Both the position numbers and the translations under genes were made by a program. The notes under the pieces are model-generated. The model was not told the origin of the DNA and searched no databases. It saw only the letters and a list, made by a program, of their open reading frames with translations. A stretch of DNA of 64,000 bases from Escherichia coli (GTDB taxonomy: Bacteria; Pseudomonadota; Gammaproteobacteria; Enterobacterales; Enterobacteriaceae), in NCBI RefSeq assembly GCF_044324875.1, contig NZ_CP172186.1; one strand, 5' to 3'. Of the stretch, positions 3,077 to 63,528 are shown in pieces. Each line of letters opens with the position of its first letter. Positions within the stretch are counted from its first letter, which is position 1.

Positions 3077-3631
3077 GTTTATGAAAACATATCATCATTC
3101 ATTCGAGATGTTTTTATACACTCTGAAGAAAATGATCTCATTCCTGATTTTCTTAATTCGACATTCGTTGACTGGGATGATGCAAAGTACATGACAGAAA
3201 GTATGAGCTTCGTACTGGAAGAAGTATCAGTTATCCTGAACAAAGAGAATACCGAAACAACAGAAATTTCTTATGATCAAAACCTGTATTCACTTCTGGC
3301 TCATCATAATCATATTACCCCTTGCTGGAATAATGTTATTTCTCTACTGAGTGAAGATGCGTCACTTGCTGGTGATACTTTTTGTAAGTGGCTTAATATT
3401 AATTATTCTTTATTGCCAAATGACTCGTTGCCTTTGACTGATGTTCAGTTCTCGCAATTACTTATTAAGGCTGTTACATCACCTCATATCAGTAAAGAAG
3501 CGTTAATAGCGATAACCATGGCATTTAGGATAACTCTTATTAATGTACCAGAAAACTTACCACTGAATAATGCTGCGGTACTAATCAAGCAAAAATGGCT
3601 GGCACCAACCAGTACTGTGTTTGAACAACTT
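3077..3631 (+). pseudogene. Internal fragment of a low-GC gene of unknown function, truncated 5' by IS629-like and 3' by IS1
   Basis: Frame of tracked ORF 3191-3658 is open upstream to the IS boundary at 3076 and its stop codon lies inside the IS1 IR; AT-rich composition. Confidence 0.4.
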
Positions 3632-3962: not shown

Positions 3963-4384
3963 CCTCGCGCATACAGCCGGGCAGTGACGTCATCGTCTGC
4001 GCGGAAATGGACGAACAGTGGGGCTATGTCGGGGCTAAATCGCGCCAGCGCTGGCTGTTTTACGCGTATGACAGGCTCCGGAAGACGGTTGTTGCGCACG
4101 TATTCTGTGAACGCACGATGGCGACGCTGGGGCGTCTTATGAGCCTGCTGTCACCCTTTGACGTGGTGATATGGATGACGGATGGCTGGCCGCTGTATGA
4201 ATCCCGCCTGAAGGGAAAGCTGCACGTAATCAGCAAGCGATATACGCAGCGAATTGAGCGGCATAACCTGAATCTGAGGCAGCACCTGGCACGGCTGGGA
4301 CGGAAGTCGCTGTCGTTCTCAAAATCGGTGGAGCTGCATGACAAAGTCATCGGGCATTATCTGAACATAAAACACTATCAATAA
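3881..4384 (+). CDS. insB: IS1 InsB (expressed as InsAB' by frameshift)
   Basis: 167 aa, overlapping insA in -1 frame. Confidence 0.9.
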
Positions 4385-4399
4385 GTTGGAGTCATTACC

Positions 4400-4542
4400 T
4401 AACAAGAGATAAAATCCCCTTCTATATGCTTTCAAAAAATAGTATAAATCGTTATTCTGATATGAGTGATTTTATTCAATCCAATAATGAAACAACTCCA
4501 GAAAAGGCATTTATTAAAGAAGTTATGGGAACAGGGGACTGA
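4400..4542 (+). pseudogene. 3' remnant (about 46 codons) of the gene that preceded mcbG, truncated by IS1
   Basis: Frame is open from the IS1 junction to a TGA 4 nt before the mcbG-like start (...PEKAFIKEVMGTGD*). Confidence 0.35.
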
Positions 4543-4545
4543 CAC

Positions 4546-5109
4546 ATGGATATAATAGAAAAAAGAATCACAAAACGACACCTCAGTGAAAGTAAATTAT
4601 CAGGTGTAAATTATTACAATTGTATATTTGAACGAATACAGCTTGACAACTTTAACTTTCGCGATTGTGAGTTCGAAAAATGTCGCTTCGTAAACTGCTC
4701 AATAAAGAATTTAAAACTTAATTTTTTTAAACTTATTGACTGTGAATTCAAAGATTGTTTATTACAAGGAGTAAATGCAGCAGACATTATGTTTCCCTGT
4801 ACTTTTTCTCTTGTAAATTGTGATTTGAGATTTGTTGATTTTATTAGTTTACGGTTACAGAAATCTGTTTTTTTATCCAGTCGCTTCCGTGATTGTTTAT
4901 TTGAGGAAACAGACCTTCGTAAATCTGATTTTACTGGTTCGGAGTTTAATAATACAGAGTTCAGACATTCTGATTTGTCTCACTGTGATTTTTCAATGAC
5001 AGAAGGTCTCGATATAAATCCTGAGATAAACAGGATCTTATCTATAAAGATACCACAGGAAGCAGGTTTAAAAATACTTAAACGAATGGGAGTGGTTGTA
5101 GGGGGATGA
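4546..5109 (+). CDS. mcbG: Pentapeptide-repeat protein, McbG-like (microcin B17 immunity / gyrase protection; Qnr-like fold)
   Basis: 187 aa; MDIIEK... N-terminus and LGVVVGG C-terminus as in Qnr/McbG proteins; tandem pentapeptide repeats (CEFEKCRFVNCSIKNLKL...); AT-rich. Confidence 0.6.
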   Translation: MDIIEKRITKRHLSESKLSGVNYYNCIFERIQLDNFNFRDCEFEKCRFVNCSIKNLKLNFFKLIDCEFKDCLLQGVNAADIMFPCTFSLVNCDLRFVDFISLRLQKSVFLSSRFRDCLFEETDLRKSDFTGSEFNNTEFRHSDLSHCDFSMTEGLDINPEINRILSIKIPQEAGLKILKRMGVVVGG

Positions 5110-5814: not shown

Positions 5815-6500
5815 GTAAGCGTCAACGGAGCACCGTATTGACGCTTATTTATTGGTGAGTACTACGTTCCATGGCAGGAGTTCGTCAACTCGGTTGGAAA
5901 GCCATTCCGGCAGTACGCTCAGAATATGGCGCAGATACGCTTCCGGATCGATACCGTTCAGACGGCAGGTGCCGATCAGCCCGTACAGCAGTGCACCACG
6001 CTCGCCGCCGTGATCGCTACCGAAGAACACGTAATTTTTCTTTCCGAGACAGACTGCACGAAGCGCTCTTTCCGCTGTGTTATTGTCCGCCTCCGCCAGA
6101 CCGTCATCACAGAAGTTGCACAACGCAACCCAGTGCTTCCTGATATACCGGAACGCATCTCTCAGACGGCATTTTTTCGATAACGTGTGTTCTTTCTCCT
6201 GCATCAGCTTATACAGGGAAGTCAGTAGCGGTTTACTCTGCATTTGCCTGACCGCCAGGCGTTCAGACACCGGCAACCCGCGTATTTCGTGCTCAATGGC
6301 GTACAGTTCGGGCATCAGGATTATGCCGCTTTCCTCACAGAGAGGAATTATCGTAGCATTCCCCGTAGTGATGCCATGTGGCAACTGGCTGTCCAGCTGG
6401 GAAATAGTGGATTTATCAGGCCGCCGAAACTTACTCACGCTGATACACGTATTCGTATAGAGCCCTTTTTTAACGCTGAAAATGAATACGACTGACATCG
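5815..6500 (-). mobile_element. IS66-family element, 3' fragment with terminal IR
   Basis: Terminal GTAAGCGTCAACGGAGCACCGTATTGACG at 5815 resembles the IS66 IR; contains tnpC C-terminal coding region. Confidence 0.7.
5845..6498 (-). pseudogene. IS66-family TnpC, C-terminal fragment
   Basis: ...[54 protein letters not shown]... aligns with C-terminus of TnpC at 8504-10042. Confidence 0.8.
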
Positions 6501-49959: not shown

Positions 49960-50500
49960 GACACCCTTCGGCTCCCGGCTGCCTGGCGGCATCCGGTCGT
50001 CGGCCCGACTCCGACAGGCAGCTGCTGGCGCACCCGCCAGTCTCCGCCGAACCCGCTGGCGCGGTTTCGGGCTGCCGCTACGGTCCGATGTCTGAAAAAC
50101 CAGGCCTGCAGCGACCGTTCCGGTCGCGCCGCCCCTGTCGCGCCGGAAACGGCGCTCCCTGCACACCTGACGGTGTGTAAGGCCACTGCGCCTGATGGCG
50201 CAGTCAACCCTTCCGCCGCCACCCCTGCGGCCTGTTTCCCGCTGTGGACTTTCCGGGGGCTGAAGCGGCCACAACACGGGGCAGCCGTCCAGGGGAGAGA
50301 TGTACCAGCCACAAAACTTTTTGCCGCAGGCGTCAAAAACTTTTGCGTCTGCCCCCGGACAACTGCCCCGTGCCGTGGCAGTCGCTGCCCCATCGGAAAG
50401 GTCCACTGCGGGGAGAAACCCCGAAGAAGTGGACGGCAGAAGGGGCTTTCGCCCCTCCGGGGGAGCAACCGGTCGGCCCGGCGACCTGATTCAGCAGAAG
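49960..50500 (+). repeat. GC-rich direct repeat family B, copy 2
   Basis: See 38300-38870. Confidence 0.6.
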
Positions 50501-52247: not shown

Positions 52248-52308
52248 TGAGAGCATCACAGCCCGGCAAAATGCCGGGCTTTTTGCCAGCAGGAGCAGAG
52301 CAAACAGC

Positions 52309-52527
52309 ATGACGATTGCAGAACGTCTTATACAGAAAGGTTTCGACGAGGGTTTTAAAGAAGGTTTTAAACAAGGTTTTAAACAAGGTTTTAAACAAGG
52401 AGCTCTTGAAGTGGCGCGGGAAATAGCCTGCCGGCTTCGGGATATAGGCTGGTCGCCGGAACGGATTCAGGAGGTCACGGGACTTTCCGGTGAAGAACTG
52501 AAAAAGCTGTTTCCTGATGAGCAGTAG
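52309..52527 (+). CDS. Small ORF resembling the C-terminal tail of the Rpn-like protein, with GFK(E/Q)GFKQ tandem repeats
   Basis: MTIAERLIQKG...GLSGEELKK parallels ...MTIAERLEQKG...GLSEAELKK of the upstream gene. Confidence 0.4.
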   Translation: MTIAERLIQKGFDEGFKEGFKQGFKQGFKQGALEVAREIACRLRDIGWSPERIQEVTGLSGEELKKLFPDEQ

Positions 52528-52557
52528 CCTGGCATTCAGCCAGGCTGTGAATCACGC

Positions 52558-52809
52558 TCACACATCCTCTGCCGTTTCCCCCAGTTCATTTTCCAGTCGC
52601 CTGATGATATCTGCCTTACGCATCCCCTGCATGTGAGGCAGCAGGTCACGGACTGAAAGTGCCTGGGTGGTCCTCCAGACGGTGACGTCCACCTGTTCCG
52701 CATTTTCCCAGGCGTGCCATGTTCTCTGCGTCACGCCAAATTCTCTGGCCGCTTTTTCGCGTGACCAGAGCATGCTTTTTCGCCAGATTCGCAGTTCCCA
52801 TCCGGTCAT
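52558..52809 (-). CDS. HTH (XRE-like) DNA-binding protein
   Basis: 83 aa; AAREFGVTQRTWHAWE HTH-like segment; twin palindromes upstream. Confidence 0.5.
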   Translation of the reverse strand: MTGWELRIWRKSMLWSREKAAREFGVTQRTWHAWENAEQVDVTVWRTTQALSVRDLLPHMQGMRKADIIRRLENELGETAEDV

Positions 52810-52823
52810 AAAACACCTTTGAA

Positions 52824-52909
52824 AAAGTGAAAAAACTTCACTTTATTTTATCATCACAATTGCCAAATCAGCGCGATAAATAAGTGTAAAAAAGTGAAGA
52901 AATTTCACT
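52824..52909. promoter_or_regulatory. Two palindromic operator-like sites AAGTGAA-N5-TTCACTT upstream of the HTH gene
   Basis: 52824-52842 AAGTGAAAAAACTTCACTT and 52891-52909 AAGTGAAGAAATTTCACTT. Confidence 0.5.
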
Positions 52910-53019
52910 TTTTTTGGTTGTAAATGTCGTGCGGTTTTCTCTGTTTTCACCTGTGCGGGAGTGGTGTGCCAGTGACCACCACATGCCATTGTTGTGCCGT
53001 CGTTTTTCTTCAGTCGCGC

Positions 53020-53370
53020 CGGATGCGGCGCTCCCTGCACACCTTACGGTGTGTAAGGCCACTGCGCCTGATGGCGCAGCTGCCTCTGCCTGTCTGCCGC
53101 CGCACTGCGGCCTGTTCTCCGCAGACGGACTTTCCGGGGGTACATACACGACCACATCCCGTTTCAGTCGTCCAGGGGAGAGATGTACCAGCCACAAAAC
53201 TTTTTGCCGCAGGCGTCAAAAACTTTTGCGTCTGCCCCCGGACAACTGCCCCGTGACGTGGTGAGCGTCCCCCGTCGGAAAGGTCCACTGCGGGGAAATC
53301 CCCGAAGACCCGGACGGCAGAAGGAGCTTCGCTCCTCCGGGAAATGACCTGGCTGACCCGGCAGTCGTGA
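53020..53370 (+). repeat. GC-rich direct repeat family B, copy 3 (partial)
   Basis: See 38300-38870. Confidence 0.55.
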
Positions 53371-54322: not shown

Positions 54323-54664
54323 TCAATTGTTGTTCATATCGATGCCATCTTTCCTGCCTGAATCTGTCTTTTTAGGTGCTGTTTTAGAGGAAGAACGGCG
54401 GGATGTTTTTTTCGATTCTGCTTCCCGAATAATGTCACGAAGTGCCTTCTCTCCTACTTCATACCCTGCATTTTTGAGCGTGTCACGAATATCTGCCAGT
54501 GTATAACCCTTTGTCCTTACCAGGACAATAATGTCATCACGAATGGCATCAAGAAAATCACGCAATGTTTTCCGTTGAGCGGTGAGATCTGGCAATTCCG
54601 ATAAAGCAGCTTTTGCCAGCTGGATGTCATCATCTGAGTAAAATTTTTTAGAAGCCATTGGCAC
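54323..54664 (-). CDS. Hypothetical protein (basic C-terminus)
   Basis: 113 aa ORF. Confidence 0.5.
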   Translation of the reverse strand: MPMASKKFYSDDDIQLAKAALSELPDLTAQRKTLRDFLDAIRDDIIVLVRTKGYTLADIRDTLKNAGYEVGEKALRDIIREAESKKTSRRSSSKTAPKKTDSGRKDGIDMNNN

Positions 54665-62302: not shown

Positions 62303-63528
62303 CTGTTCTCCAATGACTAGTCTAAAAACTAGTATTAAGACTATCACTTATTTAAGTGATATTGGTTGTCTGGAGATTCAGGGGGCCAGTCTAAAGAGTA
62401 AGGAACTTACTGATTCATTTAATATTATTATCCATCAATAACTGAGCATACAAAAAAATAACAAAACTCTGACACAGATACAACCAGCTCTCTCTATATC
62501 AGACTGACATTCTTCTCAAAAAGAGGCGTGTTCTGGAACACGGAACAGAAGCAATGAACATTGTAGACAGAAACACACTCTGTTTTTTACACGAGGATAT
62601 ATGTCGGGAAAATCAGGCAGAAGAAATTAAAGGACTTTGTGCATACAAAGGGAAAGCGCGTTTCCGGTGCACCATATTAGATATTATCCCTGCTACAAAC
62701 ACCAGAGACGCGCTCATAACTCTTCTAGCGTAAAATATCCTTTCAGGCAAGGAAAAGGTCGTGATACAGAATCACGACCTTAATTTTATCGAAAACACGG
62801 ATTTTAGTATGCACATGACTGTACTCCTCAGGAGTACAGGGAAATCATAATCAGTAACAAAAACACCCGGCAACAAAAATTTAACGCGTTTACGCTATTT
62901 TTGTGACAAATATTGCAAATATGGAATCACTGTATTTTTACTGCAACAAAATCTGGTTGATCCACAGGCGGATCCGGGGTAAAAAATTATCCGGAATGTT
63001 TCTGCGTGGTGTGGTAAAACCTCTAGCCGGATTGCCTTTGCAGCAACGCAGGAACATTCCATCCTTTATCAGTACTCCTGACGCTGTAAAGACCTGGCTG
63101 ATGCAGACAGGACTGCTGATATCGAATCAAAGCTTTCTCATTTTTTCGCGTACACAAAATAAAACAAATCAGGCAATTCCTTACACTCCCCCTCTAAAAT
63201 TGAGGGTTTTTTTTTACCATATAAATTACTTGCACAGCTTTTAAAAAAATTGCAAATCTTTACTGTAGTGTCGGGCTTCATGTAGCTCAACAGGGCATGG
63301 ACTAAAAAGAAGTAAACCCATCTTTTATCTCCCTGATATGGGGGTCTTTGTGGCATAAAGAATTCCTTGAATTATTATTTTGATCATATCAACATGAAAA
63401 GAATAATACTCTGACTTTTGATTTCCAGTGCCAGATATAAAATCAAATTCACTGTAAATATCACATAATGATATCTGGCTGCCCCCAGTCACTTCCTGTA
63501 TTCAGCCACACATATAAGCCCCCTGAAT

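Follow-up and report, generated by a model that had tools for sequence, protein, structure and literature searches.

Restriction-modification C proteins are XRE-type helix-turn-helix (HTH) proteins of ~80 amino acids that have two dyads upstream of their own gene and show delayed, self-limiting expression after entry. Plasmid-encoded repressors of the ArdK/KorA type (IncN pKM101, IncW R388), which lie in or act on the leading region, bring about zygotic induction and then shut-off. For IncW, leading-region regulators have been mentioned previously (PMC10104558). Aca2 of Pectobacterium phage ZF40 (PDB 7b5j, 7vjo, 7vjq, 7ezy) is an autorepressor whose promoter contains the two inverted repeats through which it acts (PMC6765145), and its structural homologue YdiL (Salmonella STM1362) has been proposed to be an autorepressor as well (PMC8434428). 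Here we compare with these systems the ygeA gene of an IncI plasmid. We think it likely from the sequence of the locus and its relatives that ygeA is a self-contained autoregulatory module composed of the YgeA protein and two operators.

The window, by which we mean the entire 64-kb stretch of Escherichia coli DNA that was analysed, is by its sequence the conjugative leading region of a plasmid of the IncI1/Igamma type (IncI-gamma/K1). The region matches ~2000 IncI1/Igamma/K-type plasmids at 95-99% identity, pRM002_1 being the best match. The plus-strand order in pRM002_1 is ssb, a parB-like gene, psiB, psiA, ardA, two hypothetical genes, Rpn and a 72-aa ORF, past which come the HTH gene (minus strand), DUF4942 (plus), a MobC-like gene (minus), nikA and nikB. 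Copies of the HTH gene, ygeA, at no less than 80% identity are found in ~2020 PLSDB records. Counted from oriT, the gene comes third, behind the MobC-like and DUF4942 genes, and runs antiparallel to ssb, psiB, psiA and ardA. This placement, near oriT and on the strand opposite the T-strand, fits that of family 22 of Samuel et al. (2024), an HTH regulator family of 2333 members with a median position of 2 from oriT and strand -1 (Supplementary Table 1 of that work); Rpn families occupy positions 3 and 4 in the same survey, the main text of which does not address the function of family 22. The other early genes of the leading region are templated by the transferred (minus) strand. For ygeA the template is the complement, and the gene is therefore expected to be expressible only after second-strand synthesis. 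The other gene here that is opposed to the transferred strand encodes the MobC-like protein of 113 aa (54323-54664, minus strand), which corresponds to R64 YggA, the first gene beside oriT, and is a homologue of pCTX-M3 Orf35; deletion of orf35 in pCTX-M3 raised nikA, nikB and traH transcripts 23-80-fold (PMC6112013). To the right of the dyads discussed below, GC-rich DNA at 53013-53261 is homologous to a second copy at 50137-50378, and this repeat (ssi1), which folds strongly as single-stranded DNA, fits the ssi/Frpo class-1 single-stranded DNA (ssDNA) promoters reported for ColIb-P9 and pESBL (PMC12672017).

The 83-aa ORF at 52558-52809 (minus strand) is YgeA of the R64 type. Its product (WP_000148285-type) is named YgeA or XRE regulator in the source annotation and is annotated as an HTH regulator in ~2000 plasmids. 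The gene starts with ATG, and the Shine-Dalgarno sequence AAGGTG read from the sequence at 52814-52819 (minus strand) lies 4 nt from it. The transcription unit is monocistronic, convergent with the 72-aa ORF and Rpn and divergent from DUF4942. Among IncI-type copies dN/dS is only 0.05-0.14, and dS between the ygeA copies of the window and CP150497 is 1.27; these values speak for strong purifying selection and hence for a real, constrained gene. That the ORF encodes an HTH regulator, as originally predicted, is supported by its Pfam matches and by its modelled fold. The HTH_31 match is significant yet below threshold (E 7e-5; 23.5 bits against a gathering cut-off of 27), as is the HTH_3 match in bit score (16.8 bits against 23). 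The AF2 model (pLDDT 89.5) is all-helical with no beta strands; its predicted helices, at residues 3-12, 17-24, 28-35 (recognition), 42-60 and 65-77, form a helical bundle in which helices 2 and 3 make up the helix-turn-helix. The family is narrow, with 79 representatives at E <=1e-3 among 1.8 billion proteins, and its N-terminal signature is MTGxELRxWRKxxxWSxxxAAxELGVSLRTxxxYE (alignment A1).

According to the profile searches and the model, the nearest solved relative of YgeA is Aca2, both by sequence and by fold. The family profile (A1) searched against the PDB gave Aca2 as the best match (7ezy, E 2e-6 over residues 1-52), with 8w35 and 7vjo at E 0.0025, and Aca2 outranked HipB and MqsA-type antitoxins. 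In a Foldseek search with the YgeA model, Aca2 occupied ranks 1, 2, 5-7 and 9, with 30-33% identity over ~70 columns and TM-scores of 0.41-0.45 when normalised to the target; the top matches were all of the XRE type (Aca2, HipB, CapH and SinR; probability 0.95-1.0). The two proteins have in common the N-terminus MTxxEL..RK.L....EAA...GVS.R.W..WE, and upstream of ygeA lie two dyads that may serve in a similar way. They also differ in several respects. Aca2 is 115-125 aa long with a distinct C-terminal dimerisation domain (PMC8434428), a domain that YgeA, at 83 aa, does not have. The repeats of Aca2 have the form TTCG-N6/N8-CGAA and are closely spaced, whereas the YgeA dyads are of different sequence and 67 bp apart. 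The aca2 gene shares an operon with an acr gene, which precedes it; ygeA is transcribed alone, with no acr gene. Like ygeA, the YdiL gene stands alone, and an inverted repeat covers its -10, but it is chromosomal, has the two-domain Aca2 architecture that YgeA lacks, and is absent among the matches listed for YgeA. The locus also demonstrates that the leading regions of plasmids can harbour Aca2-like repressors as modules on their own.

The remaining systems are more distant. The C protein C.Esp1396I appears at Foldseek rank 48 with the YgeA model. In a C-box the operators adjoin each other within ~35 bp, and one transcript carries both the C gene and an endonuclease gene, in contrast to the 67-bp arrangement of ygeA with no endonuclease downstream. 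Compared by description, the ArdK/KorA-type repressors have many operator copies before several leading operons, whereas YgeA has only its own two sites in the whole of pRM002_1. Two further candidates were set aside. AcrIE9/10a is HTH-like with a beta-hairpin (PMC12248084) and has a different architecture. An F-plasmid protein that is likewise called YgeA lies downstream of Frpo1 in leading orientation (PMC9849209); its orientation is opposite to that of ygeA here, and the two were kept apart by description, the F data not being transferred.

Since its closest relatives are Aca2 and HipB/MqsA-type antitoxins, YgeA might be the regulatory partner of a neighbour, be it as an antitoxin, an Aca-type anti-defence repressor or a restriction-modification controller. 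Three of the 2333 family members were indeed tagged aca6 by Samuel et al., and a homologue with 30-36% identity overlaps or precedes Mrr_cat or 'restriction endonuclease' genes in pCTX-M3 and in plasmid L008. In the window, however, ygeA is convergent with its downstream neighbour, and its transcription unit includes no gene for a toxin, an endonuclease or an Acr protein. A dedicated antitoxin test returned no partner ORF in the transcription unit and NCBIfam antitoxin models at E 0.04 or worse, and Rpn has its own C-terminal small-protein copy. We therefore regard a partner role for YgeA as very unlikely.

The case for an autoregulatory module begins with the dyads themselves. A pattern search of the 64-kb window found exact AAGTGAA-N5-TTCACTT twice, at 52825-52843 and 52892-52910. 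The original prediction of two copies was thus correct apart from its coordinates (52824-52842 and 52891-52909), which were 1 base too low; so was the 67-bp separation it gave, which is the distance between the dyad centres, and its placement of the pair directly upstream of the minus-strand HTH ORF. The dyads lie between that gene and the ssi1/Frpo-like repeat. The palindromes extend beyond the core, the proximal arms reaching 8 bp (52824-52844) and the distal arms 11 bp (52888-52914). With up to two mismatches allowed, the window holds three matches against 0.23 expected, and none of 100 shuffles gave three. Likewise, a same-arm pair of perfect 7-N5-7 inverted repeats within 200 bp arose in none of 60 first-order Markov simulations. 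With up to three mismatches there are six matches against 2.5 expected, a number attained by 3 of the 100 shuffles, and the extra matches at two to three mismatches are close to chance expectation. Inverted repeats are plentiful in this DNA: the window contains 21 perfect 7-N5-7 repeats against 4.4 +/- 2.0 in Markov simulations, among them two further perfect 11-N5-11 palindromes, which start at 62755 (AAGGTCGTGAT) and 63534 (TGTGGTTTTTA), and repeats with GGCCATG arms, found twice.

Just 5' of ygeA, the two exact dyads bracket an extended -10 element, TGaTAAAAT (52845-52853, minus strand; hexamer TAAAAT from 52850 to 52845), which we assign to the ygeA promoter from its sequence and conservation; the promoter has no recognisable -35. 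The predicted proximal operator O1 (52824-52844; AAAGTGAA-N5-TTCACTTT, core 52825-52843) would overlie the predicted transcription start (~52838) and the early 5' UTR. The predicted distal operator O2 (52888-52914; AAAAAAGTGAA-N5-TTCACTTTTTT, core 52892-52910) would be centred at about -63 from that start. Both are identified by pattern and conservation. Adjoining O2 is an extra half-site, AAGTGTA (52882-52888), which lies 10 bp, or one helical turn, from the left arm and is included in a 10-bp tandem of TAAAAAAGTG (two copies, 52877-52896). A 65-aa ORF (52843-53040, minus strand) spans the distal dyad and part of ssi1. RefSeq lists it as a 'hypothetical protein' in a number of plasmids, L013 and L014 (894-1091) among them. 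It shares its DNA with regulatory and hairpin sequence and is unlikely to be a true gene.

Given this layout, we propose that a YgeA dimer sits on each dyad and contacts it via the helix at residues 28-35. On the proximal dyad, over the predicted start, YgeA would block RNA polymerase and so repress ygeA. The distal dyad may be a cooperative aid to repression, or may boost the -35-less promoter when the protein is scarce. According to this scheme, YgeA would be made only after the incoming plasmid has become double-stranded, firing unrepressed in the new host and then shutting itself off. Two additions to the scheme were considered and rejected. An RNA hairpin at the ribosome-binding site, as with the second repeat of Aca2, could not be transcribed whole, since the predicted start lies inside the left arm. 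An argument from helical phase for the distal site also fails, because 56/57 and 67 bp share a phase but the 43 bp of phage relatives does not; inter-operator spacings in the family are 43, 55-57 and 67 bp and are not all in helical phase.

In an alignment of six IncI-type promoters the AAAGG of the ribosome-binding site and the block TGATAAAATAAAGTG are invariant, the latter despite the dS of 1.27 that separates the window from CP150497. The O1 arms are the same in five IncI-type copies and show a single change (GTGTA) in CP150497; the O2 arms are invariant in the five, one of which has an altered spacer, and carry one arm change (TACAC) in CP150497. The 67-bp spacing of the dyads is identical in all six aligned promoters, CP150497 included. 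Variation across the six is found instead in the 5-bp spacer and in the stretch that separates the two dyads. In CP150497 most of that stretch cannot be aligned, and past the distal dyad other sequence, unrelated to the window, has taken over, yet the module keeps its exact spacing. Thus the coding sequence, -10, ribosome-binding site, spacing and, nearly, the dyad arms have been kept, whereas the inter-dyad DNA has diverged. The same plan extends to more distant relatives: a dyad equivalent to O1 is found at the matching position in L003-L006 and L015, and the TAAAAT hexamer adjoins the proximal dyad in L004, L005 and L015 as well.

The strongest evidence on the identity of the dyads comes from the homologues, which range from 86% to ~32% identity to YgeA in plasmids and phage contigs and have 7-N5-7 dyads just upstream, with half-sites that vary among GTGAA, GTGCA, GTGTC, GCGCA and GGGTA. 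IncI plasmids have AAGTGAA/TTCACTT twice at 67 bp, and CP150497 (86% identity) has mixed GTGAA/GTGTA dyads, also at 67 bp. Enterobacter plasmid L004 (48%) and Salmonella plasmid L005 (47%) each have AAGTGCA-N5-TGCACTT twice, spaced by 57 and 56 bp, respectively, and GTGCA dyads recur as one perfect and one degenerate copy in L006 (53%) and as one near-perfect (1 mismatch) and one degenerate copy in Serratia plasmid L015. Single dyads are found in L007 (37%; ATGTGAC-N5-GTCACTT), in L009 (34%; ATGGGTA-N5-TACCCAT) and in phage contigs at ~32-35% identity (AAGTGTC-N5-GACACTT). Other phage contigs have pairs at 43 bp, consisting of AAGCGCA and AGGCGCA dyads at ~39-46% identity and of GTGAA/GTGCA hybrids flanking TATAAT at 44%. 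The half-sites thus vary with the protein while the architecture is fixed, which is the signature expected of a cognate repressor-operator pair. This co-variation supports the proposal that the dyads are operators of the HTH protein, and we infer that the two dyads are very probably YgeA's own.

It also bears on two other explanations. In CRP sites the spacer is N6, and the symmetry of LacI/Cra-type sites is even. A site for a host factor was rejected, as the odd N5 spacer does not suit such proteins and the arms co-vary with the adjacent protein. Alternatively, the dyads could serve as hairpins in the transferred single strand, either as part of the ssi1 ssDNA promoter or as a priming signal, independently of the HTH protein. 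Both dyads can fold small hairpins on the T-strand near the large ssi1 hairpin, and the dyad/ssi1 region folds strongly as single-stranded DNA (z = -7.85). Nevertheless, what is conserved in the arms is their sequence, which varies in step with the adjacent protein, and the dyads are also found in phage contigs and beside unrelated DNA; their stems, moreover, are short and rich in A+T. A purely structural role strikes us as extremely improbable.

The suggestion of a 'dedicated repressor switch' in the leading region fares less well. No other site with up to one mismatch was found in the complete 87.7-kb pRM002_1, a search that also covered spacers of 4-6 and a 5+5 core, and the 64-kb window contains no further convincing operator at up to three mismatches; the two-mismatch site at 3349-3367 looks like chance. 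In the absence of further operators, with the module persisting beside unrelated DNA, and with ygeA expressible only after second-strand synthesis, the suggestion is unsupported; the evidence points to autoregulation alone. A concrete form of the suggestion is that the dyads control a rightward double-stranded DNA promoter reading through ssi1 into the DUF4942 operon, such that YgeA, on a plasmid that has become double-stranded, would silence this first leading operon or roadblock read-through toward oriT and nikAB. There is a plus-strand candidate, GTGAAA-16-TATCAT (52827-52854), the -35 of which falls within the proximal dyad, the distal dyad being downstream of it, and in four lineages the operators adjoin the ssDNA-promoter-like hairpin of a divergent operon. 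We give this adjacency little weight because it follows from ygeA being divergent from the next early operon. The candidate promoter, the sole rightward promoter-like site that overlaps a dyad, is largely a mirror image of the ygeA -10; its own -10 reads TATCAC in the sister IncI plasmids L013 and L014, losing the invariant T, and it has no counterpart in L004 or L005. Moreover, the dyads and their spacing are kept in CP150497 with unrelated DNA beyond the distal dyad, and the module occurs in phage contigs without an ssDNA-promoter neighbour. Rightward control is, in our judgement, unlikely.

Transcription in the other direction deserves similar consideration, as no intrinsic terminator was found 3' of ygeA on the minus strand, where an 8-bp-stem G+C hairpin without a U tract (52526-52546) lies behind the gene. 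In a new host, an unrepressed ygeA promoter could therefore fire leftward into the convergent 72-aa ORF/Rpn operon as an antisense pulse that aids early-gene shut-off, until YgeA silences this promoter. The homologues in L003, L004, L005 and L015 are also convergent with leading genes. The idea is purely inferential, though, and the convergent partner differs in each lineage (Rpn, a methylase, hok or a hypothetical gene), so no specific antisense target is conserved. In addition, ssDNA promoters are reported to silence themselves once the DNA is double-stranded (PMC12672017). We consider an antisense function to be quite unlikely.

The convergent ORF has features of its own. At 52309-52527 (plus strand), it is a free-standing copy of the Rpn C-terminus, matching residues 263-309 of Rpn (311 aa) at 43% identity, and is interrupted by a 12-bp tandem repeat (4.2 copies, 52351-52400) that encodes (GFKQ)n; its annotated length varies among plasmids from 56 to 81 aa. 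It resembles the small C-terminal Rpn proteins that are reported to be intragenic antitoxins of Rpn nucleases. G+C-rich hairpins with 8-bp stems and no T tracts follow both Rpn (52260-52280) and the 72-aa ORF (52526-52546). The second of these lies in the 30-bp gap between the 72-aa ORF and ygeA and could be a bidirectional transcript end or a stabiliser.

Several relatives of ygeA are found in settings worth recording. In phage contigs of ~62 kb (L035, 2968-3219), a homologue stands alone between ORFs of 552 and 260 aa, which by sequence look like the large and small terminase subunits, and a consensus TATAAT lies between its two dyads, which are GTGAA/GTGCA hybrids. The homologues at L005 3001-3272 (plus strand) and at L015 from ~4045 to 3806 (minus strand), which have perfect and near-perfect operators, respectively, are unannotated in CP076094 and in Serratia plasmid pJSRIV002_2. 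A GC-rich, hairpin-rich element lies upstream of the HTH operators at L005 2491-2910, and elements of this type precede leading operons of L015 three times (2179-2515, 4298-4642 and 6355-6489). BLAST found no similarity between the L005/L015 element and the IncI ssi repeats, and we think it probably constitutes a further sequence family of ssDNA promoters. In the IncL/M-type plasmids pCTX-M3 (L002, 6001-6249) and L008 (4001-4258), the homologue with 30-36% identity lies inside an operon and precedes a 'restriction endonuclease' or Mrr_cat gene, the two genes overlapping in pCTX-M3. No dyad is present directly upstream of these two homologues, the arrangement of which resembles the layout of restriction-modification controller proteins. 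The 37% homologue of L007 heads an operon with a PLD-type nuclease.

The literature we searched contains no description of YgeA operators or function. Papers reporting TraDIS or Tn-seq analyses of I-complex plasmids do not mention ygeA, and the article text of the RNA-seq study of early pESBL conjugation (PMC12672017) does not discuss it. Aside from its own promoter, no target of YgeA is evident from the sequence, and the autoregulatory module by itself thereby leaves the benefit to the plasmid unexplained. One further idea, though an unlikely one, is that ygeA acts as a 'second-strand clock' of plasmid establishment. The ygeA family is the largest leading-region gene family opposed to the transferred strand, at no more than three genes from oriT, which places it among the first genes expressible only after strand copying. 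In such a scheme, each transfer would set off a single burst from the extended -10 promoter while it is free of repressor, after which YgeA would silence that promoter, and the burst would mark the switch from the ssDNA programme to the double-stranded one, for example through antisense transcription into the early operon or a block to read-through toward oriT.

Taking the evidence together, ygeA is most likely an Aca2-like XRE-type autorepressor with paired operators, of a kind that is already known, and the significance of the finding is accordingly modest. An autorepressed HTH gene with paired dyads is a textbook mechanism; this is an ordinary circuit in a little-studied gene. Nevertheless, ygeA is present in ~2000 sequenced IncI-type resistance plasmids and belongs to one of the most abundant leading-region families. 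The predicted operator, two copies of AAGTGAA-N5-TTCACTT, offers a direct experimental handle on it, and the relatives provide a natural specificity series (GTGAA, GTGCA, GTGTC and GCGCA). The locus supplies one small, concrete piece for understanding how expression is ordered after conjugative entry.
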